From Nanoarchaeum equitans Kin4-M (lineage in GTDB: Archaea > Nanobdellota > Nanobdellia > Nanobdellales > Nanoarchaeaceae), in NCBI GenBank assembly GCA_000008085.1, contig AE017199.1:150001-182000 (forward strand): 32,000 bases of DNA, in the 5' to 3' direction. This document shows, piece by piece, positions 1 through 31,791 of the stretch. Position numbers and translations under genes: made by a program. The notes below the pieces were generated by a model, which was not told where the DNA came from, searched no databases, and was given only the letters and a program-made list of their open reading frames with translations. Position 1 is the first letter of the stretch. Each line of letters begins with the position of its first letter.

Positions 1-581
1 CCAACCAAATTCGGGGATAAATTAGTTCTAATAACATAGTATAGAACAATGTTTATAACCAAAGACATAGTTACCATCCCTAATAGAATGGGTGATATCT
101 CATTGTAAAAAGTGGAAAAATCAATCTTCTTACCCCTACTTTCATATAAAGTTGCTAACAATATTAAAAAGTAAGCTAATACTAATAATAAACCATCTAA
201 TTCTGTTATTATTCCATCAACTACTGCTAAGAATGGCAAAAACAAAGCAAAAACTATTAAATCTAAATAGCCTTCTATATGTTTAAGGGAAACTTCTTTT
301 TTCCCTTTTATATAATAGATTAACATAGAGAATACTACTCCAAACAATGCAGAAGTAGTAATTATGTATAATGGAGTTTTATAATTAAAAATGTTGTTGC
401 CGAATACGATTAATAACAACTCTGGGATAGACATTATCAAAGAGGCTAAAACGAAACCCGATAAATGCTCTAACATGTTTACTTTTTTTAGGAACGATTT
501 TATCGATACTGTTACTAAAGAACTGGCCAAAGCAACAACGAAAGAGGATAAAACTATGTTAATAAATATATTATAGTCCAT
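1..581 (-). CDS. Polytopic membrane protein, N-terminal part (gene runs off the left edge); weakly cation/Ca2+ exchanger (CaCA/YrbG)-like
   Basis: Absent from the ORF track because no stop lies in the window. A reverse-strand ATG at 581-579 opens a frame that stays open to position 2: MDYNIFINIVLSSFVVALASSLV...MSIPELLLIVFGNN...DGIITELDGLLLVLAYFLILLATLY. It has several hydrophobic helices. SIPEL and the D-G-x-I-x-x-x-(D/E)-G-x-x-L-x-x-x-Y stretch resemble CaCA motifs. The start lies 23.5 nt from the TATA centre at 602-607. Confidence 0.5.
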   Translation of the reverse strand, partial: MDYNIFINIVLSSFVVALASSLVTVSIKSFLKKVNMLEHLSGFVLASLIMSIPELLLIVFGNNIFNYKTPLYIITTSALFGVVFSMLIYYIKGKKEVSLKHIEGYLDLIVFALFLPFLAVVDGIITELDGLLLVLAYFLILLATLYESRGKKIDFSTFYNEISPILLGMVTMSLVINIVLYYVIRTNLSPNLV

Positions 582-601
582 TTTATATTTAGCAATAGAT
601 A

Positions 602-607
602 TTTAAA
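602..607. promoter_or_regulatory. Shared TATA core (TTTAAA in gatATTTAAAtttt) for divergent genes starting at 581 (-) and 628 (+)
   Basis: The hexamer centre (604.5) is 23.5 nt from the first base of both ATG codons. This is the same spacing used by the other promoters in the window. Confidence 0.6.
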
Positions 608-627
608 TTTTGATCACACCAAAGCAT

Positions 628-831
628 ATGATAGATATATCTAAAATAAAATTGCCCAAAAACATCGATATTAAACAAATCAAGGAATTGCCTAAAAAAA
701 TACCCATAAAGGTAAATCTTAAAACGGATTTGGTTAAAATAAACAAAGATAAAGGGACTATCTATATTAACGACAAAAAAATAAAAGAGAAGCTATCAAA
801 TTTGCTCTCTAAGATCCCCTTTAAGAAATAA
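628..831 (+). CDS. Hypothetical small basic Lys/Ile-rich protein (67 aa)
   Basis: The track ORF is 610..831 with a TTG start. The in-frame ATG at 628 lies exactly 23.5 nt from the TATA centre, so I prefer it. I recognise no family. The 3' end overlaps the convergent methyltransferase by 36 nt. Confidence 0.35.
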   Translation: MIDISKIKLPKNIDIKQIKELPKKIPIKVNLKTDLVKINKDKGTIYINDKKIKEKLSNLLSKIPFKK

Positions 832-1422: not shown

Positions 1423-1945
1423 CCAAATATTGCCTTATCTCCTTTATATGTCTCTCTACATTTGGTATTAGTTTTTTCTCCAAATAGAGTTTTTTTCTTT
1501 TGGTTTTACCTATCTCTACTAATAATTTTCTAACTGCATCCTCTTCGCTAGCAATTTTTAATATTATTTCTATGGCCTTTTTAAGCTCTTCACTAGCCTT
1601 TTTAAGGTTTTCATCTATATAATAATGAGGTTGCTCTTTAACATTACTCTCCAAATCGAATACTTTAACTCCCATTATGTTTATGGTTTTAGTTTTTATG
1701 GAATAATCTAAAACATCTAAGGAAGAGTATAAAATACCTCTACTTGTTGCGAACTTAAAATAATGGTCATACATGCTTTTTATAATAGGTTGGAGTTCTT
1801 TTCTATATTGTTTTATCTTTTTTAATCTTTTTATTAATTCGAAAACCAAAACATTGAGCTTTTTTTCTAAAATAGATTGGCCCTTTTTGTATAGTTTTAA
1901 CTTTCTTTTTAATTCAATTAGAGTTGTTTTATTCTTGGCATACAC
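1349..1945 (-). CDS. atpD: A/V-type ATP synthase subunit D
   Basis: TLIELKRKLKLYKKGQSILEKKLNVLVFEL at the N-terminus and KRKKLYLEKKLIPNVERHIKEIRQYLDDEERE near the C-terminus match the subunit D pattern (PTR-ELL-LK ... RRVNALE--IIP). The GTG start at 1945 lies 23.5 nt from the TATA centre. Confidence 0.85.
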   Translation of the reverse strand: MYAKNKTTLIELKRKLKLYKKGQSILEKKLNVLVFELIKRLKKIKQYRKELQPIIKSMYDHYFKFATSRGILYSSLDVLDYSIKTKTINIMGVKVFDLESNVKEQPHYYIDENLKKASEELKKAIEIILKIASEEDAVRKLLVEIGKTKRKKLYLEKKLIPNVERHIKEIRQYLDDEERETIIRIEKAIQERTSDNII

Positions 1946-1965
1946 CTATTATTTATAGAAAAATT

Positions 1966-1971
1966 TTTAAA
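1966..1971. promoter_or_regulatory. Shared TATA core (aaaaTTTTTAAAtat) for atpD (-, 1945) and tRNA-Trp (+, 1992)
   Basis: The centre (1968.5) is 23.5 nt from the atpD GTG and 23.5 nt from tRNA nucleotide 1. Confidence 0.65.
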
Positions 1972-1991
1972 TATCTATCTATTGCAATCTC

Positions 1992-2078
1992 GGGGCCGTA
2001 GCTCAGCCAGGCAGAGCGGCGGATTCGAAGCCGAAGCTCCAGACCCGTAGGTCGGGGGTTCGAATCCCCCCGGCCCCA
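1992..2078 (+). tRNA. tRNA-Trp (anticodon CCA at 2039-2041) with a 13-nt intron at 2023-2035, between positions 30 and 31
   Basis: The acceptor is GGGGCCG/CGGCCCC with discriminator A. The D arm is GCTC-AGCCAGGCA-GAGC. The T arm is GGGGG-TTCGAAT-CCCCC. Removing ATTCGAAGCCGAA gives anticodon stem GCGGG/CCCGT and loop CTCCAGA, for a 74-nt mature tRNA. The pre-tRNA forms a BHB: GAG-CGGC-[GG|A]-UUCGAA-GCCG-[AA|G]-CUC. No CCA is encoded. Confidence 0.85.
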
Positions 2079-2083: not shown

Positions 2084-2089
2084 TTTAAA
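2084..2089 (+). promoter_or_regulatory. TATA core for secY
   Basis: The ctcTTTAAAataa centre (2086.5) is 23.5 nt from the GTG at 2110. Confidence 0.55.
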
Positions 2090-2109
2090 ATAATAAAATA
2101 TTTTTCCAA

Positions 2110-3540
2110 GTGTGGGCAATTGTTGAAAAGGTTGTCCAAAAGTTGCCTACAATAAAAAAACCAAAATATTTAACTAATTTGGATAGATTAAAATGGAGCG
2201 CAATCGCAGTTATTTTATATCTTTTATTGTCTTATACCCCATTAATTGGGGTTTCTCAAACTGGGGCCGGAGTATTTGAGGAATTGGTAGTTTTATTAGG
2301 AGCGAGCTTTGGATCTATAGTTTCTTTAGGTATAGGCCCCATAATAATAGGTTATCTATTGGCAGAACTATTTATTGGATCTGGAGAGCTAAATATAGAT
2401 ATAACCACAGAGGAAGGCAAAAGAAAATTCGAGAATTTAGCTAGATTTTTTATGATAGTTTTTGGTTTGTTTGAATCTATAGTAATGGCCACAATAGGTT
2501 GGTTTAAGCCTTCTCAATTTTTAATATCTTTATTTGCAATGCCTTTTTCTTTTTTAGGAAGTAACGCCTTCTTAATAGGTTATATTTTAGCAGTTTTATT
2601 TATTGTTGCACAATTAATGTTGGGAGTAATATTAGCTTATTTATTAGATGATTTGTCTCAAAAATGGGGTTTTACCTCTGGGATCAATTTATTTATATTA
2701 GCCACAGTATCGAGAGAATTGTTTGTGCAATTGTTTAACCCATTGACACAAATCCCTGGGACTCCTACTCCTCCAATAGGTAAAATCCCCCAAATCTTTT
2801 ATTTCATATCCCAAGGTTTATACACAGAAGCGATAGTAGTAGGGTTGCAACTATTAGTTATAGTTTTAGTAATATTATTGTCGGTCTATTTTTATATGGT
2901 TAAAATACCAATTCCAACGAGTTTCGGTAAAATTCCTGAAAAAAGCTTAAGATACGAAGTTAGATTGATATACACTGGGAATATCCCAGTTATATTCGCT
3001 TTCGCATTTTTACATCAAATATTATTAATAGCATGGGTTTTGCAGCAATTGGGAATACCATTATTAGGCACAATAGAGAATGGCCATCCCATTAATGGAT
3101 TGGTAGCCTACATTTATCCCGATACAGGCTTTCTAATATCTTTAATTTTGGGTAATCTTACTTTAGATAATTTAATAAGAACTATAACTTCTTCGCTATT
3201 CTTTTTAGGTTCATCAATATTGTTTAGTATATATTTTGTATTAGCCACTGGCCAAGATTCTGAAGGTTTAGCAAAACAATTATCAAAAATGTTTGGAAGG
3301 ATAGGACTAAAAAGGGATTATAGAATAATAAAGCATTATTTGGATAAAATAATTCCTTGTGTAACCGTATTAGGTGGTTTCATTGTTGGATTTTTGGCTT
3401 TGCTAAGTTATTGGGTTTCTATCCCAATTGGAGGGACATCGATATTGTTAGCAACGATGATATCTTATATGGTGTATGAACAATTGAAAGAAACAGGGAT
3501 ACTTAAAGAATTAACGCAAATCATTTCTAAACTAGAATAA
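2110..3540 (+). CDS. secY: Preprotein translocase subunit SecY
   Basis: 476 aa with 10 predicted TM helices. The N-terminus KLPTIKKPKYLTNLDRLKWSAIAVILYLLLSYTPLIG is typical of archaeal SecY/Sec61alpha. GTG start. Confidence 0.93.
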   Translation: MWAIVEKVVQKLPTIKKPKYLTNLDRLKWSAIAVILYLLLSYTPLIGVSQTGAGVFEELVVLLGASFGSIVSLGIGPIIIGYLLAELFIGSGELNIDITTEEGKRKFENLARFFMIVFGLFESIVMATIGWFKPSQFLISLFAMPFSFLGSNAFLIGYILAVLFIVAQLMLGVILAYLLDDLSQKWGFTSGINLFILATVSRELFVQLFNPLTQIPGTPTPPIGKIPQIFYFISQGLYTEAIVVGLQLLVIVLVILLSVYFYMVKIPIPTSFGKIPEKSLRYEVRLIYTGNIPVIFAFAFLHQILLIAWVLQQLGIPLLGTIENGHPINGLVAYIYPDTGFLISLILGNLTLDNLIRTITSSLFFLGSSILFSIYFVLATGQDSEGLAKQLSKMFGRIGLKRDYRIIKHYLDKIIPCVTVLGGFIVGFLALLSYWVSIPIGGTSILLATMISYMVYEQLKETGILKELTQIISKLE

Positions 3541-3541: not shown

Positions 3542-6382
<2,841 letters not shown>

Positions 6383-7468: not shown

Positions 7469-8271
7469 CTTACATGAGGGTATTTCCATTGCATTGGTTT
7501 CTTTTTAATTAAAAAGTATGCAATATGTATTATATACATTAGTAAAACATATGGGGCAGTTATTAATAATAATAACTCATTTTTAATCGCTTTCCCGCTA
7601 AATCTCGCAAACCCTCTAAATGAAGTCCAAGCTCTCGCGGATAAAACAATATTGTGCTTTTTATGAAAAGTACTATTTAATCTATAATGGAAATCTAAAT
7701 CTTCTCCGGGCCAGAAGTTTCTAAAACCCCCTATAGCTTTTGCTTCCTTTGTTCTGCATGCAGTTAAATTAGTTAAACCAACTTTTGCTCCTAATAATGT
7801 GCCTAATTTCATTAAAGGAGAAAACAAAAATAACTGTAAGAAGTTTAATAACAAAATAGTTGGGATACTTAACCAATCTTTGTCATATTTTGGAGATATT
7901 AGCATTACTGGGTAATTGGTGCCATGGTTTGGGTGTTTTTTTAGATCTTCAATCATTTTCTCTATTGTATCTTCGCTTAAGGATACGTCTCCATCTATAA
8001 ATACGGTATATTCGCCTTTAGCATTGAATAAACCAATATTTCTTGCAATGCCTGCGCCTTTACCTGGGTCTTCTAGTATGCGCCATTCGAAAAATATTTT
8101 ATCTTTGTTTTTTTCCATGAATTCCTCTATTACTTTTCTCGTTGGATCATTTTTTGGAGTAACAAAAATAACCTCAAAATCTTTATATTTTTGTTTTAAC
8201 AAAGATTCAAGCAAATATTTTATATACTTTTCTTCCCTATATGCTATAACAACTATCGATGTTTCGACCAT
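7465..8271 (-). CDS. Family 2 glycosyltransferase (GT-A fold; dolichyl-phosphate sugar synthase-like)
   Basis: SIVVIAYREEKYIKYLLESLLKQKY...FEVIFV...GAGIARNIGLFNAKGEYTVFIDGDV carries the DxD motif. The track start at 8379 would run through the promoter and into rpoB. The ATG at 8271 lies 24.5 nt from the TATA centre. Confidence 0.85.
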   Translation of the reverse strand: MVETSIVVIAYREEKYIKYLLESLLKQKYKDFEVIFVTPKNDPTRKVIEEFMEKNKDKIFFEWRILEDPGKGAGIARNIGLFNAKGEYTVFIDGDVSLSEDTIEKMIEDLKKHPNHGTNYPVMLISPKYDKDWLSIPTILLLNFLQLFLFSPLMKLGTLLGAKVGLTNLTACRTKEAKAIGGFRNFWPGEDLDFHYRLNSTFHKKHNIVLSARAWTSFRGFARFSGKAIKNELLLLITAPYVLLMYIIHIAYFLIKKKPMQWKYPHVR

Positions 8272-8292
8272 TAAATAATATTTTTCCAAATT

Positions 8293-8298
8293 TTTAAA
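8293..8298. promoter_or_regulatory. Shared TATA core (perfect palindrome TTTTTAAAAA, 8291-8300) for GT2 (-, 8271) and rpoB'' (+, 8320)
   Basis: The centre (8295.5) is 24.5 nt from the ATG at 8271 and 24.5 nt from the in-frame GTG at 8320. Confidence 0.6.
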
Positions 8299-8319
8299 AA
8301 TCGTTTTTTGGAATACAAC

Positions 8320-9789
8320 GTGTATTCGAAATTGTTGATAAAAAAATATTATGAAGAACATCCAATTACTAGACCCCAATTAGATTCTTTTAATTGGCTA
8401 ATAGACCATGGTTTAAAAAGAATAATCCAAGAAGTAGGAAAAGTAGAATTCGAAGTAACTCCTGAAGGGGTTAAAGAAGCTTATTTAGTTGCTGTAGACA
8501 TAGAAGTTGGAAAAGCCCAAATAATAGATATACAAGGACCCAGGATAATATATCCCTACGAAGCTAGGTTAAGGCAATTAACTTACTCTGCTCCAGTTAG
8601 AGTTAGATTTCAATATTATGAGGATGGAGAATTAAAAGAAGATAGATGGGTTAAAATTGGAGAATTACCTGTAATGGTTAGAAGTAAAATATGTAATACC
8701 TATGGTCTAAGCGAAGAAGAGTTGTTAAAAGTTTACGAAGACCCATTAGACCCTGGGGGATATTTCATAATCAATGGGGTAGATAGAGTAATAGTAATGG
8801 AAGAAAATTTAGCACCTAATCAATTTTATGTGCAAGAAAACAATGGAGAATATGTAGGGAAAATGCTTTCTGTAAGGGGGGGAAGAAAAATACCAATAAC
8901 AATAGAATTGAAAAAAGATGGGATTTTGTATTTAACTTTCTCTAGGTTAGAAAATGTCCCATTGATACCATTCGTAAAAGTATTAGGTATAAAAGATAAT
9001 GAAATAGCTCAATACTTAGGTAATTACGAAGAGACTTTTATTAATTTATTAGAGTTTGCCGACCAAGATTATGAATCAATAATTCTAGGAAAAATTAAGA
9101 TACCAGGTTTAACAAAAGAAGAAAAACAAGCCAAATACGAAAGATTATATGAAATAGTGGATAACTATTTGTTACCCCATATTGGATATGATCCAAGCCT
9201 TAGAAGGTTAAAAGCAATAAACTTACTAAAGTATGCATCGAAATTATTAAAATTAGCCCATGGTGAAATAAAAGAAGATGATAGAGACCACTATATGAAT
9301 AAAAGAATTTTAATGGCTGGCGATTTAGTTGGGGAATTGTTTAGAAGTGCATTCTATGCACAATTGCAAAACTTAAAATACATCTATCAAAGGAATGCAA
9401 AAAGGAAAAAAATTACTTCTATAGAAGAATTCGTTTCAGTAGATGTATTCAATCAAAGGATAGAAACTGCTTTCGCTACAGGTCAATGGGTTGGAGGCAA
9501 AACAGGTATAAGCCAACTATTGGATAGAACTAACTATTTAGCTACAGTTTGGGCTTTGAATAGAGTTACCACATCTTTAGAGGAAGAGAATGAAATGATT
9601 GAAGCAAGAAGAACCCATGGTACACATTGGGGAAGGTTAGACCCTATAGATACTCCAGAAGACAAATCTATAGGATTAAGAAAAGCTTTGACTTTACTAT
9701 CTAAAATTACTGTTGATATAGAGGAAGAAAAAATTTTGCCCATAATAAAAGAGTTGGGTGCAAAATTAGAATATGAGAGAAATTCTTAA
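8320..9789 (+). CDS. rpoB: DNA-directed RNA polymerase subunit B'' (N-terminal half of subunit B / Rpo2N)
   Basis: PQLDSFNWLI, GYFIINGVDRVIVMEE and GKTGISQLLDRTNYLATVWALNRV are N-terminal-half RpoB motifs. The ORF stops after about 490 aa at the position where B'' ends in split-B archaea. The track start is the TTG at 8308. The GTG at 8320 fits the promoter spacing better. Confidence 0.9.
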   Translation: MYSKLLIKKYYEEHPITRPQLDSFNWLIDHGLKRIIQEVGKVEFEVTPEGVKEAYLVAVDIEVGKAQIIDIQGPRIIYPYEARLRQLTYSAPVRVRFQYYEDGELKEDRWVKIGELPVMVRSKICNTYGLSEEELLKVYEDPLDPGGYFIINGVDRVIVMEENLAPNQFYVQENNGEYVGKMLSVRGGRKIPITIELKKDGILYLTFSRLENVPLIPFVKVLGIKDNEIAQYLGNYEETFINLLEFADQDYESIILGKIKIPGLTKEEKQAKYERLYEIVDNYLLPHIGYDPSLRRLKAINLLKYASKLLKLAHGEIKEDDRDHYMNKRILMAGDLVGELFRSAFYAQLQNLKYIYQRNAKRKKITSIEEFVSVDVFNQRIETAFATGQWVGGKTGISQLLDRTNYLATVWALNRVTTSLEEENEMIEARRTHGTHWGRLDPIDTPEDKSIGLRKALTLLSKITVDIEEEKILPIIKELGAKLEYERNS

Positions 9790-10918
9790 ACTTGCACTAA
9801 AAAATATACAAAGGCGAAAGCTTAGGTCTTTGTTAACAACCATAGGAGTAACAATTGGAATAGGCGCAATAAACTATTTTTTGATATTGTCTAAAAGTTT
9901 AGAGTATGGAATAATTAATACATTCGAAAGTTTGGGAAAGGATAAACTTATTATTTTGCCAGGCAAAAGGGTTGGTTTTAGCTTTAGCACAGGGTGGTAT
10001 TTTTCTAAATCGATAGTAAATTCGATAGAGCATTTGCCTTCGATAAAATATGTTATTCCTGGGAAATTTGTAACTAGCACGATAGAACACAAAAATAAAC
10101 AATTGAATGTTGTAATATATGGCTTTCCTTTAGATAAAATGAGATTGTTAACACAATTGGGATATAACTTAAGAGAAGGGCGATTCCCTTCAAACAATAA
10201 AGAATGTGTTGTCGGTTATGGAGTATACAAAGATTTGTCTATAGAGATTGGCGATAAAATATCTAATAAATTCAAATGCAAAGTTGTAGGGATTTTAGAG
10301 CAAATAGGTAGCCAAAGAGAAGATTATACTTTAATAGTCAGCGAGAATGTTTTAGAGAAACATTATAATTTAAACCAATATAATTTTATTTTCGCTATAG
10401 CGAAAGACATTGATTTGGCAAAAAAAGAGTTATCGAAATTGTTAGATAAAACAATCAAAGATTATACTATTTTAACTACAGAACAATTAGCTAAAAGGTT
10501 TGCCTCTTTATTGGGATTCGTTTCCCTATTTATCAGTGCTATTGCCGGGATTAGCTTAATTAACGCCATAATAGGGATAATGAATACTATGTATATGGTT
10601 ATTACCGAGAGAATTAGTGAGATTGGCATATTAAGAGCGATTGGGGCTAAAAAAAGAGATATATTATTTTTGTTTTTGTTCGAAAGCGGTTTTCTATCCT
10701 TGGTTGGGGGTATAGTAGGTATAGCTATATCAACAATAATTGCATTGATAACTATAATAGTATTCAAATCCATGGGCTTTAAGGCTATATTTTATATTAA
10801 CCCATTGATTGTATTAGGATTATTGGTTTTATCTTTCGTTGTTGGAATTATAGCAGGTTTGTTACCATCTAAAAAAGCTTCTGAATTAGAACCAGTAAAA
10901 GCGTTAAGGAGAGTTTAG
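9773..10918 (+). CDS. ABC transporter permease, FtsX/MacB/LolE family
   Basis: The N-terminus is [27 protein letters not shown], followed by a large extracytoplasmic domain. The C-terminal FtsX domain carries [27 protein letters not shown]. It overlaps the end of rpoB'' by 17 nt. Confidence 0.85.
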
Positions 10919-11920: not shown

Positions 11921-11926
11921 TTTAAA
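11921..11926 (+). promoter_or_regulatory. TATA core for tRNA-Leu
   Basis: The aatttTTTAAAtta centre (11923.5) is 23.5 nt from tRNA nucleotide 1 (11947). Confidence 0.65.
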
Positions 11927-11946
11927 TTACTTCTATATTAGATACT

Positions 11947-12030
11947 GCGGCCGTGCCCGAGCGGTCGAAGGGGTCGGGCTTAGGACCCGATGGGTTAGTC
12001 CCGTCCGGGGTTCGAATCCCCGCGGCCGCA
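11947..12030 (+). tRNA. tRNA-Leu (anticodon TAG)
   Basis: The acceptor is GCGGCCG/CGGCCGC with discriminator A. The anticodon arm is TCGGG-CTTAGGA-CCCGA. The long variable arm is TGGGTTAGTCCCGTC. The T arm is CGGGG-TTCGAAT-CCCCG. No CCA is encoded. The 3' end abuts the stop codon of convergent thrS. Confidence 0.9.
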
Positions 12031-13932
12031 CTATAGGTTAGCAGGTTTTAGAGATAATTTCATTGGCCCATATAATGGTCTAAATGGATACCCTTTTTGC
12101 AATTCTTCCATTTTTGATATTAAGTCTTCTAAACTAGTTTCATAAACTTTGTTTTCATATCTGTCTCTTACAGTTATTTTGTTATTTTTTATTTCTTTTT
12201 CTCCTATTACAATTATATATGGTACCCAAAGTGATTCGGCATCTTTAATTTTTTTATTTAAGGTTTCATCCCTATCATCTAATTCAACTCTAAATTTGCT
12301 TTCTAATTCTTTGGCTATTTGTTCAGCATATTCTAAATATTTCTCACTAACTGGGATAACCCTTACTTGTACTGGGCTTATCCAAAATGGCAATACAGGT
12401 TTTTCTTTTCTTAGAGCAGTATCAAATAAAGCATAAATATATCTTTCTATAGAACCTAAAATGGCGTTGTGCAATATAATAACATGCTTTTCAGATCCGT
12501 CTTTGTCTATATATTTTATACCAAACCTTTTGCTATTGTGTAAATCTATTTGAGTAGTGCCAATCTCTCTTGGCCTTCCTAAAACATCAATAATATGGTA
12601 TTCAATATTTATAATCCAATATCTTTGGTCAGATTTAGGATATATTGCTAACAATAAAGGTTTCTTAACGTCTTTGTATATCTGCTCTATTATGTATTTG
12701 TATTTTTCATAATCCTCGAACGATGCTACATTAATCAACAATTCATAATCTCTACCAATTTTCTTTATCTCTTCCATAATTTTTTTGTGCATATTTAAGA
12801 ATTGTTCTACTGCTTCGTCTAGGTCTTTAGTGAAAACATGCAAATCAGGCATATAGAATTTTCTTAACCTAAAAGCTAATACCACTTCTCCTGGTTGTTC
12901 AAACCTATATGAATCTGCTACTTCTAACATACCAAAGGGCACATTCTTATAAGACAAAGTTAAATCTTTGGCTATAGCGAATTGTTGAAAGCAAGCGGCA
13001 TACCTTAAAACGAACACAGACTTATCGGATTGCACTTCATACATTCTTTCTCCGAATAGTTTGGCATGTTCTGCAACAGGCCCTTGTTTTAAATCAAACA
13101 TGTTAGTGCCTTTAACTATAAAAACTGGGAAAGGCAATTCTTTAGCTATTTTAATAGAATAATCATTAACTAAATCTACCATTAGAGCAGCATAAGGTTT
13201 ATAACGCATATGCCCATAATCCGACAGTGGTTCCCATTCAAATCCAAATTTCTTTGCTACATCATTCAATGGGTTTTTTTCTATTTCTTCTCCTTCACTA
13301 AATACTTCTTTCAAAACCATTTTCTCAAAATCTTGGTTTATTGGTATAGGCAATTCTATCCCATCTTTTGGCAACTCAAAATGCAATTTTTCTTTATTCT
13401 CAATCTCTTTATAGTCCTTTACTAATATTTTATCCTTTTTTCCAACAATTATATATTCTTTTTCCCCATCGTAAATAAGATAGACTTTATTTCCTTCTTC
13501 TTTTTTAACCTTTTTGGGCTTAATGGTTCTAGACAATTCCGCTAATGGGTGGCCTTTAACATGGATTTCAAATTCTTTATACCAACCAAATGGTGCTTTA
13601 TATACCTCGAAACCCTCACTTTTTAATAAATCGTATGCTTTATCTAATACTTCTTTTGCCAATTTTGGAGAAGAGGGATTGTTAGTTAGATGTACATATG
13701 GATATAGTACAACTACTTTTTCTTTTATCCCAATTTTTTCTAAAACTTTCTTTATTTCTTCGACCAATTGTTCTGCCACGCTTAAATTGTCTCCATGCTC
13801 TACAGCAACGAATACTGCTAAATGTTCTTTATTTACATCAAATTCAGGTTTTTCTAATTGGTCTGCTTCCTTTAATGCCTTTTGTCTAGCGATTACTTTT
13901 ATCCTATTGGAATGCAAAAACAGTGCCCGCAT
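12031..13932 (-). CDS. thrS: Threonyl-tRNA synthetase (archaeal type with N-terminal editing domain)
   Basis: 633 aa. The N-terminus MRALFLHSNRIKV... resembles the archaeal ThrRS editing domain. A class II core follows (FRLRKFYMPDLH, GTTQIDLH, ILGSIERYI), then a C-terminal anticodon-binding domain (VRVIPVSEKYLEYA). Confidence 0.93.
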   Translation of the reverse strand: MRALFLHSNRIKVIARQKALKEADQLEKPEFDVNKEHLAVFVAVEHGDNLSVAEQLVEEIKKVLEKIGIKEKVVVLYPYVHLTNNPSSPKLAKEVLDKAYDLLKSEGFEVYKAPFGWYKEFEIHVKGHPLAELSRTIKPKKVKKEEGNKVYLIYDGEKEYIIVGKKDKILVKDYKEIENKEKLHFELPKDGIELPIPINQDFEKMVLKEVFSEGEEIEKNPLNDVAKKFGFEWEPLSDYGHMRYKPYAALMVDLVNDYSIKIAKELPFPVFIVKGTNMFDLKQGPVAEHAKLFGERMYEVQSDKSVFVLRYAACFQQFAIAKDLTLSYKNVPFGMLEVADSYRFEQPGEVVLAFRLRKFYMPDLHVFTKDLDEAVEQFLNMHKKIMEEIKKIGRDYELLINVASFEDYEKYKYIIEQIYKDVKKPLLLAIYPKSDQRYWIINIEYHIIDVLGRPREIGTTQIDLHNSKRFGIKYIDKDGSEKHVIILHNAILGSIERYIYALFDTALRKEKPVLPFWISPVQVRVIPVSEKYLEYAEQIAKELESKFRVELDDRDETLNKKIKDAESLWVPYIIVIGEKEIKNNKITVRDRYENKVYETSLEDLISKMEELQKGYPFRPLYGPMKLSLKPANL

Positions 13933-13952
13933 TATAATAAAAAAGCTTATAG

Positions 13953-13958
13953 TATAAA
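13953..13958 (-). promoter_or_regulatory. TATA core (TTTATA on the minus strand) for thrS
   Basis: The centre (13955.5) is 23.5 nt from the ATG at 13932. Confidence 0.5.
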
Positions 13959-13968
13959 GCTTAAAATT

Positions 13969-13974
13969 TTTAAA
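13969..13974 (+). promoter_or_regulatory. TATA core for tRNA-Tyr
   Basis: The aaaattTTTAAAtg centre (13971.5) is 23.5 nt from G13995, the purine immediately 5' of C1 of the tRNA. Confidence 0.65.
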
Positions 13975-13995
13975 TGCAAGATAACATAAAGCCTG

Positions 13996-14080
13996 CCGGG
14001 CGTAGCTCAGCGGCAGAGCGGCCGGCTGTAGTTGTATAGCAGATACCGGCAGGTCGGGGGTTCGAATCCCCCCGCCCGGA
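13996..14080 (+). tRNA. tRNA-Tyr (anticodon GTA at 14028-14030) with a 13-nt canonical 37/38 intron at 14032-14044
   Basis: The acceptor is CCGGGCG/CGCCCGG, giving the C1:G72 pair typical of archaeal tRNA-Tyr, with discriminator A. The anticodon stem is GCCGG/CCGGC and the loop is CTGTAG[intron]A. The BHB is CUGU/GCAG (4 bp) flanked by bulges AG|U and AU|A. The T arm is GGGGG-TTCGAAT-CCCCC. Confidence 0.9.
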
Positions 14081-14115
14081 CTTACCTTTTCATTATTACT
14101 TTTTTTAGAATAAAA

Positions 14116-14164
14116 TCTGTCGAAACCTCCATCATCATAATTCAGCGCACTACGACTTCTTCAC
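14116..14164 (-). ncRNA. Candidate C/D box sRNA (2'-O-methylation guide), 4 nt downstream of tRNA-Val
   Basis: The minus strand reads GTGAAGA (C, 14164-14158), then AGTCGTAGTGCG (12 nt), CTGA (D', 14145-14142), ATT, ATGATGA (C', 14138-14132), TGGAGGTTTCGA (12 nt) and CAGA (D, 14119-14116), followed by TTTT. The spacing is the canonical archaeal 7-12-4-3-7-12-4. The terminal C and D boxes each carry one mismatch, at the positions that normally form the U-U pair and the flipped-out U. Confidence 0.55.
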
Positions 14165-14168
14165 AAAA

Positions 14169-14240
14169 TGGGCCCGCGGGGATTCGAACCCCGGACCTCC
14201 GCCTTGTAAGGGCGGCGTCATACCCCTAGACTACGGGCCC
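14169..14240 (-). tRNA. tRNA-Val (anticodon TAC)
   Basis: The reverse complement is GGGCCCG-TA-GTCT-AGGGGTA-TGAC-G-CCGCC-CTTACAA-GGCGG-AGGTC-CGGGG-TTCGAAT-CCCCG-CGGGCCC-A. No CCA is encoded. Confidence 0.9.
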
Positions 14241-14260
14241 AGAAGGCAATTAACTTTTGA

Positions 14261-14266
14261 TTTAAA
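14261..14266 (-). promoter_or_regulatory. TATA core for tRNA-Val (and the downstream sRNA candidate)
   Basis: The minus strand reads attatattTTTAAAtca. The centre (14263.5) is 23.5 nt from tRNA nucleotide 1 (14240). Confidence 0.65.
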
Positions 14267-14281
14267 AATATAATGCTAATG

Positions 14282-14289
14282 TTTATAAA
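14282..14289 (+). promoter_or_regulatory. TATA core (TTTATAAA) for the rpl14e-rpl30e-nusA-rpoL unit
   Basis: The centre (14285.5) is 24.5 nt from the ATG at 14310. Confidence 0.55.
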
Positions 14290-14309
14290 CAGTTTTTAGA
14301 CCAATCCCA

Positions 14310-14654
14310 ATGGTGTTAGAAATAGGAAGAGTTGTTGTTAAAACTGCCGGCCGCGAGGCCGGAAGAGTAGGAGTAGTAGTAGACATTATAGATAGGAATT
14401 TCGTATTAATCGATGGCGATTTAAAGAGAAGAAAAGTAAATGTTAAACATGTGGAACCAACTCCAAAGAAAATAGACATACCAAAAGGGGCTGATACGAG
14501 AACAGTTGTTGAAAAAATGATAGAAAATGGAATAAAAGTTAGCCTATGGAAATTAAGAAGGGACAATCTAAAAGATTTGGTTGATAAATTAATAGAAAAA
14601 TTCCCAGAAGTAAAAGAAGATTTAGAGAGGTTAAAAGCTATAGGTAAATGGTAA
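14310..14654 (+). CDS. rpl14e: Ribosomal protein L14e (eL14)
   Basis: EIGRVVVKTAGREAGRVGVVVDIIDRNFVLIDG...KRRKVNVKHVEPT is the KOW-type L14e signature. A helical C-terminal tail follows. Confidence 0.85.
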   Translation: MVLEIGRVVVKTAGREAGRVGVVVDIIDRNFVLIDGDLKRRKVNVKHVEPTPKKIDIPKGADTRTVVEKMIENGIKVSLWKLRRDNLKDLVDKLIEKFPEVKEDLERLKAIGKW

Positions 14655-16235: not shown

Positions 16236-16255
16236 TAGCATTTATGCTAAACCAA

Positions 16256-22450: not shown

Positions 22451-22456
22451 TTTAAA
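22451..22456 (+). promoter_or_regulatory. TATA core for peroxiredoxin
   Basis: The aaattTTTAAAatat centre (22453.5) is 23.5 nt from the ATG at 22477. Confidence 0.6.
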
Positions 22457-22476
22457 ATATAACTGAATATATTCGC

Positions 22477-23145
22477 ATGGTCGTCTTAGGCCAAAAGTTC
22501 CCAGAAGTAGAAGTACAAACAACACACGGAAGAATGAGATTGCCAGACCATTATAGAGGGAAGTGGTTTGTATTGTTTTCCCACCCAGCAGACTTTACAC
22601 CAGTATGTACTACAGAATTCGTAGAGTTTGCCAGAAACTATGACAAATTTAAAGCAATGAACACAGAGTTAATTGGGTTATCAATAGACCAAGTATTTAG
22701 CCATATAAAATGGATAGAATGGATTAAAGAGAAATTCAATGTAGAAATACCATTCCCAGTAATTGCAGATGACCAAGGAGAATTAGCAAGAATGTTAGGA
22801 ATGATTTCCCCATACAAAGGCACAAACACAGTAAGAGCAGTATTTATTGTAGACCCAGAAGGTTACATAAGAGCTATGTTATACTACCCACAAGAAACTG
22901 GAAGAAACATACCAGAAATATTAAGATTGGTCGAAGCATTACAAACAGCAGACAAATATGGAGTAGCAACCCCAGCTAACTGGCATGTCGATAGATACGA
23001 ATTCAAACCATCTTCAATAGTAGGAAACGATGTAATAATACCACCAGCATCTAGCTTAGAAGAAAAGAAAGACAGAGAAGAAAGAGCAAAGAAAGGCGAA
23101 ATAGAATGCTTCGATTGGTGGTTCTGCCACAAAAAGCTAGAGTAA
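22477..23145 (+). CDS. Peroxiredoxin (archaeal Prx6-like / thiol peroxidase)
   Basis: [18 protein letters not shown] carries the peroxidatic Cys. The C-terminal [11 protein letters not shown] Cys pair is typical of crenarchaeal-type peroxiredoxins. 222 aa. Confidence 0.95.
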
Positions 23146-23603: not shown

Positions 23604-25356
23604 GGAATTCGATTTCATTTATTTCTCTAAAGTTACCCAGATGTTTAACCCAATTAGCTTTTGCTCTTATTTCTTCTAATATTTTGTTATTTAACAAATC
23701 TGATTCCACATAAAATAAATATTTACCTATCTCTCTTTTGTCGGGCCTAGACTCTAATTTTCTTAAATTTATATTGTGTTTATGGAATATCTCCAACACT
23801 TCTTTTAAAGAGCCAGGCTTATCTTCTAAAGAGAAAACTAAAGCGCTATACTTTGGATTGGGCAATTGCTTTTTACCAATAATTATAAATCTAGTTTTGT
23901 TTTCTTTATTATCCTCGATATGCTCATCATAAATTTTTAGCCCATAGAATATTGCTGCAGTTTTTGATGTTATTGCTAAAGAATACTCGTCTAACATAGA
24001 TATTGCTTCAGAAGTTGAATTTGAATAAACTATCTCTGCATTAGGGAATTTTTTCGAAATATATTCCATAGATTGTGCAATAGCTTGGGGGTGAGATATT
24101 ATTCTTTTTACTTCTTTAACATTTTTACCAACTAAACATAGGTTTATTCTATGTATATACTCGCCCACAATTTTAACATTGTATTTTATTAGGGAATCCA
24201 AGGTTTCATTCACACTACCTCCTAAAACATTCTCTATAGGCACTATACCCAAAGCAATTTCGTTATTTTCCAATGCATCAAAAATATGGGATATCTTTCT
24301 ATAATATTTTATATTTAGCCTGGTTTTATTTAATTTTAGTGCTACTTCATCACTAAAACTTCCTATTGGGCCCAAAACTCCTATCCAAGGCTTTGGATTT
24401 TCTATATGCTTAGCCCAAGATATTAGCAATTCAATTAATTGATCTGTATACAAAGGATTAAGCTCTCTTTCTTTGGCGAATTCTAGTAAAATATTTCTCT
24501 TTTCTATTTCCCATTTTTTATCCTCTATAGGTAAATTTCTTAGTTCTTTTATTTCTTTTATTTGCTTTGCCAAATCGTTTCTTATTTTTATTAAGTCTAA
24601 AATTAGTTTGTCAATAACCATAATTTGTTTTCTAATATCTTTGTTCCATAGTTTTGATAAATTCAATAACAATGCCCTAGAGAAACCTTCTACCCTCTCT
24701 TTTGGTATATAATCTTCTATATTGTTTGATACTTCTTTCAAAAATTTGATGTAGTTCTCTCTATAGGTTTTAGCATTCTTTTCTTTTTGTATATCTAATA
24801 AGATTTGCGGGTTCTGTTCTAACAATCTTTCTGACAATCTATATAAAGCTTCGGCAGATGCTGTTTTTATTGGGAATCTCCTAGCGAAATGATAATAAGA
24901 TATTAACAATAAATGAGTTACAACTTGCAATTCATTTATTTTTTCATGTTCCTCTAAAGACATTTCAATTAAATCAAAATCCAAAAATTGCAAAAAGCTT
25001 TTGTCTGTGCTTTCTTTTATTACAACTATTTTAGAGAATTCCTCATAGATGCTGGGCCCAAACAAAGGATGCAAAGATAAAAACTTAAAACCATACTGTT
25101 CTATTATAGGAATTACTACATCTTTTTTAGAGGCTAAATCTATTATTACCCCATTAAAATTGTTTTCTTTTAATTTTGATAATATTTCATTATAAGAATT
25201 TTCTGGTATAGCCAATATAGCATATTTAAATTTGCTAAACTCGTTTTCTTCAATTTCTTTAATCGATCGAGAATATACTTTAACATTTAACCCTTTTCTT
25301 TTTAAATAATTATAAAAATACTGGCCTAATCTTCCAAATCCAATAATTAATATCAT
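23587..25356 (-). CDS. Trifunctional fusion: prephenate dehydrogenase (TyrA) - chorismate mutase (AroQ) - prephenate dehydratase (PheA) with a C-terminal ACT domain
   Basis: The N-terminus has a Rossmann fold, MILIIGFGRLGQ. The middle helical AroQ-like segment is IDKLILDLIKIRNDLAKQIKEIK...EKRNILL. The PDT domain is IGVLGPIGSFSDEVA...NKTRFIIIG. The ACT domain is SALVFSLEDKPGSLKEVLEIF...INLRKLESRP...YLFYVE. The ATG at 25356 lies 23.5 nt from TTTAAA 25377-25382. Confidence 0.85.
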   Translation of the reverse strand: MILIIGFGRLGQYFYNYLKRKGLNVKVYSRSIKEIEENEFSKFKYAILAIPENSYNEILSKLKENNFNGVIIDLASKKDVVIPIIEQYGFKFLSLHPLFGPSIYEEFSKIVVIKESTDKSFLQFLDFDLIEMSLEEHEKINELQVVTHLLLISYYHFARRFPIKTASAEALYRLSERLLEQNPQILLDIQKEKNAKTYRENYIKFLKEVSNNIEDYIPKERVEGFSRALLLNLSKLWNKDIRKQIMVIDKLILDLIKIRNDLAKQIKEIKELRNLPIEDKKWEIEKRNILLEFAKERELNPLYTDQLIELLISWAKHIENPKPWIGVLGPIGSFSDEVALKLNKTRLNIKYYRKISHIFDALENNEIALGIVPIENVLGGSVNETLDSLIKYNVKIVGEYIHRINLCLVGKNVKEVKRIISHPQAIAQSMEYISKKFPNAEIVYSNSTSEAISMLDEYSLAITSKTAAIFYGLKIYDEHIEDNKENKTRFIIIGKKQLPNPKYSALVFSLEDKPGSLKEVLEIFHKHNINLRKLESRPDKREIGKYLFYVESDLLNNKILEEIRAKANWVKHLGNFREINEIEFPKILD

Positions 25357-25369
25357 AACCATATATAGG

Positions 25370-25382
25370 TTTATAATTTAAA
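25370..25382. promoter_or_regulatory. Two interleaved TATA cores: TTTATAAT (25370-25377) for the GT4 gene (+, 25398) and TTTAAA (25377-25382) for the tyrA fusion (-, 25356)
   Basis: The centre 25373.5 is 24.5 nt from the ATG at 25398. The centre 25379.5 is 23.5 nt from the ATG at 25356. The start points are only 42 nt apart, so the two boxes cross over instead of coinciding. Confidence 0.5.
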
Positions 25383-25397
25383 ATTACAAAAATGGCA

Positions 25398-26558
25398 ATG
25401 AAAATACTATTGTTTCATCCATTTTTGAAATCTATGGGGGGAGCTGAAAAGTTAATCTATGAGTATTCGAAAAGATCAAAACATAAAATATATATCTTAA
25501 GTTGGATATACATTAAAAACAAAACATTTTCTTTTGAGGCTGTATATAGTATTTTAGGTAATAAGTTAGAAAGCATAGCAAGATCTTATTTTGGTAGGTT
25601 ATTGTTTTTGCCTTTGTCTTTATTAAAGTTTCCCGAAGATTTTGATGTTTTGGTTATTTCTACTTCTGGTATATCGATTCTATCACTATTGGGCAAAAAA
25701 ATTAATATCCCAAAATTGGCTTATGTACATACCCCATTAAGAGCAGCTTATCCTTTAGACATAATATGGAATATAAATTATAGATTTAGACAGCTAAAAA
25801 AATATTTCTACAAAAGCGCATATACAATTTATAATTTTTTAGAAAAAAATGCTTGGTCTAAATTGGATTTCGCAGTATTTAATTCTTATTTATCTAGAAA
25901 AAGGGCATTAGATAAAAAACTAATAGATTTAGATAAAACAGCAATTATTTATCCTGGAGCCAATTTGGAATCTCTATATTATAAAGAACCAGAAAACTAT
26001 TTTTTGTATGTTGCGAGGTTTAATATCATAAAAAGGCAACACATATTAATTAAAGCATTTGCAAAGTTTTCTAAAAAATACGATTATAAATTAATTTTGG
26101 TTGGAGGGCTTGAGAATAAAAGATATTTCATTCGTTTGTTAAAATTAATCAAGAAATATAATCTAGAAAATAGAGTAAAGTTGCTTTATAATTTGCCATA
26201 CCAAAAAATAATAGAACTTTATTCTAAAGCATTGGCTTTTGTTCATATCCCATTTATGGAAGACTTTGGAATAGCCCCATTAGAAGCAGCTGCGGCTGGT
26301 AAATACATAATTAATGTATACCCTTCTGGGAATTATGAGATATTAAAGGATTTTCCTGGGATATATTGGATTAAAGAGAGATTTTACGATGAGAAGATGG
26401 TAGAAGAAGTGTATAAAGCGTTAGAATATTTTATAAAAAATAAAGACGAATTAATAGAAAAAGGTAAAGAGAATAGAAAGAAAATAAAAGAGCTGGACTT
26501 ATCATGGGATAGGTTTGCTAAGGAGATGGATAAAATAATAGAAACTAGGATAGTTTAA
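25398..26558 (+). CDS. Family 4 (GT-B) glycosyltransferase
   Basis: The N-terminus is MKILLFHPFLKSMGGAEKLIYEY. The C-terminal EDFGIAPLEAAAAGKYII contains the E-x7-E motif region. Confidence 0.85.
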   Translation: MKILLFHPFLKSMGGAEKLIYEYSKRSKHKIYILSWIYIKNKTFSFEAVYSILGNKLESIARSYFGRLLFLPLSLLKFPEDFDVLVISTSGISILSLLGKKINIPKLAYVHTPLRAAYPLDIIWNINYRFRQLKKYFYKSAYTIYNFLEKNAWSKLDFAVFNSYLSRKRALDKKLIDLDKTAIIYPGANLESLYYKEPENYFLYVARFNIIKRQHILIKAFAKFSKKYDYKLILVGGLENKRYFIRLLKLIKKYNLENRVKLLYNLPYQKIIELYSKALAFVHIPFMEDFGIAPLEAAAAGKYIINVYPSGNYEILKDFPGIYWIKERFYDEKMVEEVYKALEYFIKNKDELIEKGKENRKKIKELDLSWDRFAKEMDKIIETRIV

Positions 26559-29616: not shown

Positions 29617-29651
29617 AAGGCCGCCGCTCTACCAAGCTGAGCTACGGGCCC
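29578..29651 (-). tRNA. tRNA-Arg (anticodon TCT)
   Basis: The reverse complement is GGGCCCG-TA-GCTC-AGCTTGGTA-GAGC-G-GCGGC-CTTCTAA-GCCGT-AGGTC-GCGGG-TTCGAAT-CCCGC-CGGGCCC-G. No CCA is encoded. Confidence 0.9.
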
Positions 29652-29656
29652 AGAGT

Positions 29657-30388
29657 TCAATCGGCCTCTCCTTTAAAAGCTTTTAGATCTTTTAATGTTG
29701 CTTCCTCAACTTTGTCAGCGAAAAATTCTATTTTACCAGTTTTTATGTTTTTCTTAAGCTTTCCATATACTTTATATATATGGCCTATTTCCCAATCAAA
29801 ATCGTTGAAATATACTACAGGCAATTCCCTATCTAAGCTAGTTAAAATTGCTTTCGATACTATTGTGCCTTTTTGGGTTTGTTTTTTTGGATATTTAACT
29901 ATGCAAATCCCAACAAATTCTTGCTTTTGGGGTTTTATCTCTAAATCGCTTTCTAAAATTTTATAACTGTCTATATGTAATTCTAAATTGCCAGTTTTCT
30001 TATTAATTTTGGTTTTCCCAATAGCTTCTATTACAGTGTTTTCAGGTAATTCTTTATCGGTATTCCAAATAATAGCTTTAATAGTACCGGTTTCGTCTCC
30101 TAAAATAATAGGTTGGAATTTCCCTTTCGAATAACTAATTAATCCAAAAGATTTGAGAATTTTGCCCTTTACTTTTACATATTCCCAGCTTTCTAATTCG
30201 CCAATTTTTTTCTCTTTCGGAGTGTTTTTATACAAAACACCAAGTTTTTTTGCTACTAATAGTAAAGCCCCCCTACGAGATATTAAATTGTTAAAAGCTT
30301 TAATTTTTTCTTCCACCATTTTTTCTATTTCCTCTCGAGATTTGCCAGTTTTTTCTATTATTAGTTGTATTAGTTCCTCTTCATCCAT
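29657..30388 (-). CDS. SSB/RPA-like OB-fold single-stranded nucleic-acid-binding protein
   Basis: The N-terminal helical segment EELIQLIIEKTGKSREEIEKMVEEKIKAFNNLISRRGALLLVAKKLGV is typical of archaeal RPA/SSB N-termini. It is followed by beta-rich OB-like segments (VKVKGKILKSFGLISY...GTIKAIIWN). 243 aa. Confidence 0.7.
   Translation of the reverse strand: MDEEELIQLIIEKTGKSREEIEKMVEEKIKAFNNLISRRGALLLVAKKLGVLYKNTPKEKKIGELESWEYVKVKGKILKSFGLISYSKGKFQPIILGDETGTIKAIIWNTDKELPENTVIEAIGKTKINKKTGNLELHIDSYKILESDLEIKPQKQEFVGICIVKYPKKQTQKGTIVSKAILTSLDRELPVVYFNDFDWEIGHIYKVYGKLKKNIKTGKIEFFADKVEEATLKDLKAFKGEAD
29672..29677 (-). promoter_or_regulatory. TATA core for tRNA-Arg, embedded in the last codons of the upstream SSB-like CDS
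   Basis: The minus strand reads ctaaaagctTTTAAAgga. The centre (29674.5) is 23.5 nt from tRNA nucleotide 1 (29651). Confidence 0.6.
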
Positions 30389-30923: not shown

Positions 30924-31203
30924 CCAATGCTTCTTCTTCTTTCTTTTCCTCTTTTTTCTCCTCTTTCTTTTCTTCTTTCTTCTCTTGTTCTGGAGCTGGA
31001 GCTGCTACGGGGGCTGCTACAGTAACTTGGGAAGCCTTTTCTAATATTTCATCAATGTTTACTCCCTCTAAAGCAGCAACTACAGCTTTAACCATACCTT
31101 CATTAACCTCAACTCCAGCAGCTTCTAAAACTTTTTTTAAGTTTTCTTCGTTAATTTCTTTGCCTGCCTTGTGTAAAAGCAATGCCGCGTATATGTATTC
31201 CAT
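30895..31203 (-). CDS. rpl12: Ribosomal stalk protein P1 (L12e/aP1)
   Basis: The N-terminus is [33 protein letters not shown]. An Ala/Pro hinge and an EKKEE repeat follow, and the C-terminus is the conserved GLASLFGM. Confidence 0.9.
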
Positions 31204-31223
31204 TGGCTTTCCATTAAGAACAA

Positions 31224-31229
31224 TTTAAA
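31224..31229 (-). promoter_or_regulatory. TATA core for rpl12
   Basis: The minus strand reads attccattTTTAAAttg. The centre (31226.5) is 23.5 nt from the ATG at 31203. Confidence 0.6.
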
Positions 31230-31238
31230 AATGGAATG

Positions 31239-31246
31239 TTTATAAA
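31239..31246 (+). promoter_or_regulatory. TATA core (TTTATAAA) for rpl22
   Basis: The centre (31242.5) is 24.5 nt from the ATG at 31267. Confidence 0.6.
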
Positions 31247-31266
31247 GGGTATATTGAAGTTTCCCA

Positions 31267-31791
31267 ATGAGATATTCAGTAAGCTTAGAAAATGTGGCAA
31301 AGCTCTATGCACATAATTTGCCTATTTCAACAAAACATGCTGTAGAGATTGCGAAAATGATTAGATATTTGCCTTTGCAATTAGCAAAAGAAATGTTACA
31401 AAAAGTTTTAGACAAAGAATTAGCTGTGCCTTTCTTTAGATACAATAGAGATATCCCCCATAGGAAAAAAGGACAAATCCACCCATATTTTAAAATAAAA
31501 CATGGTAGATTCCCAGAAAATGCCACAAAATGGATATTAAAAGAATTAAATTCTGTAGAAAAGAATGCCATTAATTTGGGAATGGATCCTAACAAATTGT
31601 TTATAGTACATATTGCAGCACACAAAGGAGTTAGGGGATATACAAGCGTTTATGGGAGAAGAGCAAGAAGAAAAGCAACCCATTTAGAAATAATGGTTGC
31701 AGAAAATAAGGATTATGATCCCTCTAAGAAGTACCCATTAAAAGAATTAAAAAGGATGGGCCATAAATTATTTTTGAGCCTCAAGAAATAA
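31267..31791 (+). CDS. rpl22: Ribosomal protein L22 (uL22)
   Basis: AHNLPISTKHAVEIAKMIRYLPLQLAKEMLQKV...AVPFFRY...GRFPENATKWILKELNSVEKNAINLG...IVHIAAHKG...RRKATHLEIMV matches the L22 pattern. It stands alone, outside an S10/spc-type cluster. Confidence 0.9.
   Translation: MRYSVSLENVAKLYAHNLPISTKHAVEIAKMIRYLPLQLAKEMLQKVLDKELAVPFFRYNRDIPHRKKGQIHPYFKIKHGRFPENATKWILKELNSVEKNAINLGMDPNKLFIVHIAAHKGVRGYTSVYGRRARRKATHLEIMVAENKDYDPSKKYPLKELKRMGHKLFLSLKK

Follow-up and report, generated by a model that had tools for sequence, protein, structure and literature searches.

Leaderless archaeal mRNAs whose TATA signal keeps a constant distance to the start codon were reportedly noted by Torarinsson and co-workers in 2005, and leaderless tRNA promoters in Nanoarchaeum equitans are said to have been described by Randau and co-workers in 2008 under the title 'Life without RNase P'. 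In the available part of a report on the same organism (Randau, 2012; PMC3491384), RNA-seq shows that transcription of N. equitans tRNA genes begins with the tRNA itself, at a distance of 26 nt from the initial T of an upstream TTTAAA element (box A), with a purine at +1 and without a leader, the latter because RNase P is absent. In that part of the report tRNA, tRNA-half and sRNA genes are treated as single promoters, and the sharing of a box with a divergent protein gene goes unmentioned. At the genome level, a computed 71.8% of N. equitans genes are leaderless, the top value among the archaea surveyed (Zheng et al., 2011; PMC3160421). Such surveys of leaderless mRNAs find, as in the region described here, a constant spacing between TATA signal and start codon, but they offer genome-level statistics only and do not analyse the geometry of divergent pairs.

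Promoters that fire in both directions from one TATA box are likewise known from other archaea. In Pyrococcus furiosus, BRE-TATA-BRE elements with a TTTAAA core are flanked by divergent start sites with a separation of 49-50 bp; differential RNA-seq revealed both directions, both transcripts were obtained in vitro with TBP, TFB, TFE and RNA polymerase, the only such precedent, and the authors ascribe this bidirectionality to symmetric TBP binding (Grünberger et al., 2019; PMC6640164). In Thermococcus kodakarensis, divergent start sites that share a TATA box are mostly 52 bp apart, a minor class at 36 bp has overlapping promoter elements, and start-site maps of Haloferax volcanii reveal a similar shared-TATA divergence (Warman et al., bioRxiv 10.1101/2020.01.31.928960).

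The window analysed here, a stretch of 32,000 nucleotides with a G+C content of about 31%, was identified as N. equitans Kin4-M by exact-sequence look-up (ThrRS = NEQ177, SecY = NEQ168). Its genes are dispersed, non-operonic and informational, among them SecY, the RFC small subunit, a split RNA polymerase B, ThrRS and several ribosomal proteins. For distance statistics the sample was extended to 50.4 kb by adding 18.4 kb of flanks from identical metagenome contigs, the overlaps of which were checked and found identical.

The initial annotation had pointed to six divergent pairs with a palindromic TATA box at the exact midpoint between their first bases, together with eleven one-way promoters, and all of these (6/6 and 11/11) lie where it had placed them. 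In the first pair, a 291-aa ORF on the minus strand (581) and a 67-aa ORF on the plus strand (628) are separated by 47 nt, with TTTAAA at 602-607 and box-to-start gaps of 20/20; the gene calls on metagenome contig L177 give the same pair as 6638|6685. The second pair (1945..1992) joins ATP synthase subunit D (minus, GTG at 1945) to an intron-containing tRNA (plus, G at 1992) through TTTAAA 1966-1971, again with gaps of 20/20. In the third (8271..8320), a family-2 glycosyltransferase (minus, ATG 8271) faces NEQ173, the N-terminal part of RNA polymerase B (plus, GTG 8320), at 49 nt and with gaps of 21/21, and the TTTAAA at 8293-8298 sits within a 12-nt palindrome, ATTTTTAAAAAT, at 8290-8301. The fourth pair, a KaiC-like ATPase (minus, 11685) and ribosomal protein S27ae (plus, 11733), is 48 nt apart around TTTAAA 11706-11711 with gaps of 20/21. 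Ribosomal proteins L15e (minus, 16207) and L44e (plus, 16256) form the fifth pair at 49 nt with gaps of 20/20 around TTTATAAA (16228-16235), an 8-nt palindrome that presents TATAAA at -26..-21 on either strand. In the sixth, ribosomal protein S19e (minus, 20403) and a class IV aminotransferase (plus, 20450) stand 47 nt apart, with TTTAAA at 20424-20429 and gaps of 20/20.

A palindromic box, TTTAAA in five pairs and TTTATAAA in one, thus lies at most half a base from the midpoint in 6/6 spacers; the midpoint is exact in pairs 1, 2, 3, 5 and 6, and the claim of exactness fails for pair 4, which is half a base off. The three bases flanking the shared boxes are 100% A/T on both sides (12/12 half-sites), with A-rich sequence further out, and one-way boxes often have G/C in the downstream flank. 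A common origin of the spacers from one repeated promoter cassette was discarded, because their identity outside the box is 0.375, as against 0.36±0.016 for shuffled flanks; since the six are unrelated in sequence, they appear to have had independent origins.

The same spacing governs the promoters that serve a single gene. All eleven unidirectional sites (11/11) have a box-to-start gap of 20, and a gap of 20, occasionally 21, holds for all 23 listed starts, five tRNAs included, with upstream regions throughout the window in agreement. Promoters of this kind precede SecY (2084..2110, plus strand; TTTAAA 2084-2089, GTG 2110), the RFC small subunit (3542..3568, plus), a leaderless tRNA-Leu (11921..11947, plus), a peroxiredoxin (22451..22477, plus) and a leaderless tRNA-Arg (29651..29677, minus), whose box at 29672-29677 lies within the 3' end of the upstream gene. 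The remaining sites form back-to-back pairs with separate boxes: ThrRS (minus, box 13953-13958) and tRNA-Thr (plus, box 13969-13974) at 13932..13995, 63 nt apart; tRNA-Val (minus, box 14261-14266) and L14e (plus, box 14282-14289) at 14240..14310, 70 nt apart; and an acidic ribosomal protein (minus, box 31224-31229) and L22 (plus, box 31239-31246) at 31203..31267, 64 nt apart. Five of the listed first bases (1992, 11947, 13995, 14240 and 29651) are tRNA 5' ends and not start codons; for tRNA-Thr, position 13995 is G-1 at the predicted start and the acceptor stem begins with C1 at 13996. Of the window's five leaderless tRNA genes, one belongs to shared pair 2. Promoter-proximal starts are without exception purines, either A (ATG) or G (GTG, or tRNA G1/G-1), and TTG never occurs in this position.

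Protein genes and tRNA genes in the window have exactly the same box-to-start geometry, and both the element and the 26-nt distance are identical to those of the tRNA promoters described in the available part of PMC3491384. Because protein starts occupy exactly the position of tRNA starts, mRNAs without a 5' UTR are implied. The proposal in the initial annotation that transcripts are leaderless and that one TATA box serves both directions is therefore upheld by the tRNA-like geometry, the published tRNA starts, the 71.8% leaderless share and the archaeal precedents, and for protein genes we infer it from position. Taken together, a shared box with leaderless transcripts is well supported by inference.

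The reading that we favour, with a probability of about 0.78, is that the six spacers are bidirectional core promoters, each sharing one TATA box between two leaderless units whose initiation complexes would occupy it in a mutually exclusive manner, an arrangement that genome reduction would favour, as would the inherent capacity of the palindromic element to work both ways. Under this model each spacer would constitute an archaeal core promoter in which the TATA box (TTTAAA, or TATAAA within TTTATAAA) is held rigidly at -26..-21 and transcription would begin at a purine 20-21 nt downstream, which would be the first base of the start codon or tRNA. As the box is palindromic and TBP binds symmetrically, one box can serve both strands, and its A/T-rich flanks on both sides would allow TFB and RNA polymerase to be recruited in either orientation. 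Two units on one box must then start 2 x (20-21) + 6-8 + 1 = 47-49 nt apart. The over-representation of the shared class probably reflects the lower DNA cost of one box under extreme genome reduction, and a palindromic box that already fires both ways may be captured by a relocated gene.

The architecture joins two published facts, namely the rigid -26 TATA box with leaderless transcripts and the shared-TATA promoters of other archaea, and it reveals no new mechanism. It is not new for archaea; for the Nanoarchaeum lineage an explicit description of box sharing seems to be lacking, the searchable literature having yielded none. As in P. furiosus, a symmetric box with a TTTAAA core lies midway between divergent starts; there, however, the second direction mostly yields non-coding antisense RNA and mRNAs carry leaders (PMC6640164), whereas here both arms would drive leaderless genes or tRNAs with start codons 47-49 nt apart, a reading taken from the sequence. 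The 52 bp and 36 bp classes of T. kodakarensis are analogous to classes of 47-49 nt and 16-42 nt in the present sample, but the spacing in T. kodakarensis and H. volcanii is 3-5 bp longer, derives from start-site maps and has not been tied to leaderless pairs or to genome reduction.

The initial annotation further took 47-49 nt to be the physical minimum for a divergent pair, a claim that is contradicted by pairs at 16, 32, 34 and about 42 nt in the same genome. In the 32-nt pair (L177 9967|9999), two TTTAAA boxes are crossed: from each box to the farther ATG the gap is exactly 20 nt, and from the nearer box no start codon lies at the correct distance. A second crossed pair, RpoK and a PUA-domain protein at 34 nt (L173 3433|3467), has gaps of 20 and 21, and a third, ProRS and a 138-aa ORF at 16 nt (L173 9776|9792), places the ProRS box inside codons 2-4 of the neighbouring gene. 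In these short pairs, each gene's 20-21 nt gap runs to the box beyond that of its partner. A further pair with overlapping boxes is tentative: a prephenate dehydratase fusion gene (minus) and a glycosyltransferase (plus), 30 nt apart at their first ATGs (25362|25392) as the ORFs were called, may best be fitted as 25356..25398 at 42 nt, from second ATGs. There, TTTAAA 25377-25382 is 20 nt from the second ATG of the fusion gene (25356), and TATAAT 25372-25377 is 20 nt from that of the glycosyltransferase (25398).

The relation d = 47 + s, with s as the offset between the two genes' boxes, holds for each of the 15 divergent pairs in the 50.4 kb. The six shared pairs at 47-49 nt have s = 0; the back-to-back pairs at 63, 64 and 70 nt have s = +16 to +23; larger values of s account for spacers of 94 and 111 nt; and the overlapping or crossed pairs at about 42, 34, 32 and 16 nt have negative s. 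The 94-nt spacer contains a repeated TTCGAAC motif, and the 111-nt spacer contains a C/D box-like sRNA. The distance of 47-49 nt is therefore the one set by sharing a single box and not a minimum. In the 18 kb outside the window, which served as an out-of-sample test, 0/4 additional divergent pairs fell at 47-49 nt, three of them being the crossed pairs at 32, 34 and 16 nt, so the genome-wide share of this class is probably below the 6/11 seen in the window.

A bolder extension of the same idea, which we regard as doubtful, is a quantised grammar in which every divergent pair of this organism would obey d = 47 + s with a rigid -26 box, values of s = 0 and s < 0 would force mutually exclusive complexes, nearly half of the region's promoters would be competing pairs, and the capture of palindromic boxes would have restored promoters after the scrambling of operons. 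If this is true, the genome would offer a natural setting in which to test how TFB selects its orientation on a symmetric TATA box.

Less probable still, and by our estimate improbable, is that the central box serves a single gene in each pair, its partner depending on read-through or on a promoter within a neighbouring gene, with the symmetry a by-product of intergenic squeezing. The second direction in P. furiosus is often represented only by non-functional antisense RNA and associated with a weaker BRE (PMC6640164), and the BRE is poorly defined here: an alignment of about 23 promoters gave no sharp BRE consensus, and in the unidirectional set nothing stronger emerged than a weak AA.A at -32..-29 with TT after it at -28/-27. 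Both sides of the shared spacers nevertheless obey, independently, the 20-21 nt rule of gene and tRNA starts. No second TTTAAA occurs in any of the six from which a partner might start, and the extra TTTATA-type hexamers found in three of them (582, 1952 and 11692) lie at gaps that fit neither start. Many partners, moreover, stand alone or at the head of their unit, with an upstream neighbour that is convergent or unrelated, which speaks against read-through, and squeezing alone predicts a continuum of distances, not 6/15 pairs within a 3-nt bin flanked by gaps. CAATAG, which recurs upstream of several shared boxes, was considered as a promoter motif and rejected, as it is in excess throughout the window (51 vs 21.6).

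Slightly behind this in our ranking, and hence unlikely, comes the view that the shared box serves primarily as a regulatory coupling, with competitive or co-ordinated expression of the two genes, and is not a by-product of compaction. One TBP site should not hold two opposed complexes, to judge from the footprint of the archaeal pre-initiation complex, which would entail competition, and L15e and L44e are related in function. In the other five pairs, however, the partners have unrelated functions, as in ATP synthase D/tRNA, glycosyltransferase/RNA polymerase B, KaiC-like ATPase/S27ae and S19e/aminotransferase, and with partners mostly of this kind no logic of co-regulation stands behind the pairing. 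Crossed and back-to-back layouts are also interchangeable in the same genome, and other archaea show no conservation of the junctions.

Evidence on conservation comes from several comparisons. Contigs L001-L006 were set aside for strain comparison, being 99.98-100% identical to the window and thus carrying no conservation information. Scans of genome and metagenome contigs with L15e found no relative above 59% identity, and the L15e|L44e junction was absent from 80 other archaeal loci in the genome scan. A first metagenome scan with RpoB found no relatives; other Nanoarchaeota loci were gathered via RpoB homologues. In one Nanoarchaeota MAG, with an RpoB N-terminal part 48% identical, RimK (minus) and RpoH (plus) are 49 nt apart around a central TTTTTAAAA with gaps of 21/21, which, judged by its sequence, repeats the architecture with other genes and is so an independent instance. 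The orthologous RimK|RpoH pair on a Nanopusillus sp. contig is 43 nt apart with two boxes, and another Nanoarchaeota MAG has a crossed-looking pair at 29 nt. In all, the relatives yielded a single pair with a shared box (L171), besides pairs with crossed or with two boxes (L168, L181), too few for statistics; these relatives retain long, unbroken RNA polymerase and ribosomal operons, so that each locus has few promoters and the samples are small. The absence of the L15e|L44e junction from the 80 loci would fit independent, lineage-specific origins after genome scrambling. In 2.05 Mb from other archaea, start-to-start distances around palindromic boxes peak at 49-54 nt, a result rejected as support, since its triangular shape is expected from the range of the scan.

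A last alternative attributes the pattern to start codons fitted to the spacing and to the frequency of TTTAAA-like words in DNA of 31% G+C. Longer in-frame alternatives were passed over for 4/12 pair starts, with upstream candidates at TTG 8308, ATG 16244, GTG 20412 and ATG 20432, and gene callers differ among identical contigs, sometimes choosing longer forms (104 vs 108 aa, 159 vs 162 aa, 489 vs 493 aa). At those four positions the start chosen in the initial annotation is the one that matches the spacing. Independent callers on identical metagenome contigs mostly arrive at the same starts (489, 268, 104, 159 and 292 aa in L001), and an alignment of the RpoB N-terminal part with its homologues expressed no preference for TTG 8308 or GTG 8320. 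On the other side of the balance, pairs 1, 2 and 4 have no alternative starts, and the 5' ends of the tRNAs are fixed by RNA structure.

The tests against chance lead in the same direction. Far from being frequent, TTTAAA occurs 43 times in the window against an expected 84.5±8.7 in shuffled sequence, about half, and 15 of the 43 copies lie within the 3.3% of DNA that is intergenic (P about 4e-12); this overall depletion with intergenic concentration suggests an active signal that is selected against elsewhere. Few or none of 300 dinucleotide shuffles reach the counts of the spaced patterns: TTTAAA-N20-ATG occurs 12 times in the window against 2.6±1.6 with a maximum of 8, and CAT-N20/21-TTTAAA-N20/21-ATG three times against 0.10±0.34. 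In the histogram of TTTAAA-to-ATG gaps from 0 to 60, the sole peak stands at 20, and no comparably sharp spike was seen in TATA-to-ATG gap histograms from the 80 diverse archaeal loci of the genome scan. Two further tests, an ORF-opening test and a scan for divergent pairs, required neither gene caller nor annotation and are thus independent of any fitting of starts. In the 50.4 kb, ORFs of at least 50 aa were opened by 16/20 ATG/GTG codons at gap 20 and by 5/5 at gap 21, compared with 0-2 such ORFs at other gaps. The scan, which accepted divergent ORFs around a palindromic box with gaps of 12-33 on each side, returned the five protein-protein pairs among the six, only at gaps 20-21, and one further match, the ambiguous 25377 locus. 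The 47-49 nt class, with 6/15 divergent pairs in 50.4 kb, has a probability of about 4e-6 under a uniform model of 16-111 nt. The spacing of the shared-box pairs is real and non-random, far beyond chance, and an origin in fitted start codons is very improbable.

For bidirectional promoters with a shared box, the reading preferred here, the significance lies in how far promoter sharing and interleaving may extend in a reduced archaeal genome, where both arms would drive real genes and not antisense noise. The shared spacers may serve as natural substrates for studying the choice of orientation by TBP and TFB. The most useful by-products are the class of crossed promoters and the precise prediction of starts, since the rigid geometry should make N. 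equitans transcription and translation starts predictable to the nucleotide. On these grounds the geometry argues for re-annotation of NEQ173, whose annotated form is 4 codons longer and begins with TTG, from TTG 8308 to GTG 8320, and of the 25362|25392 pair to the second ATGs at 25356 and 25398; the gene call on L001 is already the 589-aa form that starts at 25356.

Divergent genes in N. equitans can also lie closer together than the 47-49 nt over which a single palindromic TATA box probably serves as a shared box midway between two starts. Such spacing occurs, tentatively, at 25356-25398 in the window (~42 nt) and, just outside it, in the genomic contigs L177 (9967-9999, 32 nt) and L173 (3433-3467, 34 nt; 9776-9792, 16 nt), and in all of these pairs both TATA boxes are crossed or overlapping, with the farther start 20-21 nt from each box. 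In the 16-nt pair, the box falls within the first codons of the neighbouring gene.

Throughout the window, TTTAAA occurs 43 times, about half the 84.5±8.7 copies expected from dinucleotide shuffles, and 15 of these copies lie in intergenic DNA, which makes up 3.3% of the sequence; together, this depletion and intergenic concentration suggest that stray TATA boxes in coding sequence are selected against. Several promoter boxes have the over-represented hexamer CAATAG upstream of them, but its excess (51 copies against 21.6±4.3 expected; at 593, 1979, 11908, 16216, 20435 and 46 further positions) is window-wide, and it was therefore rejected as a promoter-specific motif.

Some annotated or called starts disagree with the promoter geometry, in which a TTTAAA-type box precedes a predicted leaderless start by 20-21 nt (8308-8320; 1317-1422). 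For NEQ173, the N-terminal part of RNA polymerase B, the annotated start is TTG 8308, whereas the geometry fits GTG 8320; the shared box between this gene and the divergent glycosyltransferase gene is flanked by an inverted repeat, TTCCAAA/TTTGGAA (8284-8313). Similarly, metagenome callers start a methyltransferase ORF at 1317 (173 aa), whereas a TATAAA box lies 20 nt upstream of ATG 1422 (208 aa form). Between the shared box of the L15e/L44e pair and the L44e start lies the palindrome TAGCATTTATGCTA (16236-16249), inside which an alternative ATG, 16244, falls.

The promoter of tRNA-Thr(UGU) (13995-14080) predicts G 13995 as first base, and the acceptor stem CCGGGCG/CGCCCGG begins at C 13996; the resulting G-1 extension resembles that published for N. 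equitans tRNA-Tyr. Directly 3' of tRNA-Val lies a C/D box sRNA (GTGAAGA ... CTGA ... ATGATGA ... CAGA; ~14100-14167, minus strand), which was not reported at Rfam gathering thresholds, and the two match the published dicistronic tRNA-Val/sRNA8 unit. A further C/D box-like sRNA (AATGATGA ... CAGA ... TGAAGA ... CTGA; L177 ~11235-11300) accounts for the 111-nt length of the divergent spacer containing it.

At 2078-2089, the SecY TATA box begins 5 nt past a tRNA 3' end, inside CTCTTTAAAA, and the T-rich terminator of the tRNA and the SecY promoter may therefore overlap. Inverted GTTCGAA repeats together with three copies of the motif TTCGAAC (22415-22450) form a candidate transcription-factor operator between the CorC-like gene, whose sole box is degenerate (TTTTAA, gap 23 nt), and the box of the peroxiredoxin promoter. 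Finally, mutually overlapping ORFs on both strands at 26545-27193 matched no Pfam family; the plus-strand ORF has an ABC-ATPase-like C-terminus (...TLEDVFAYF) and may be a gene remnant or split gene.
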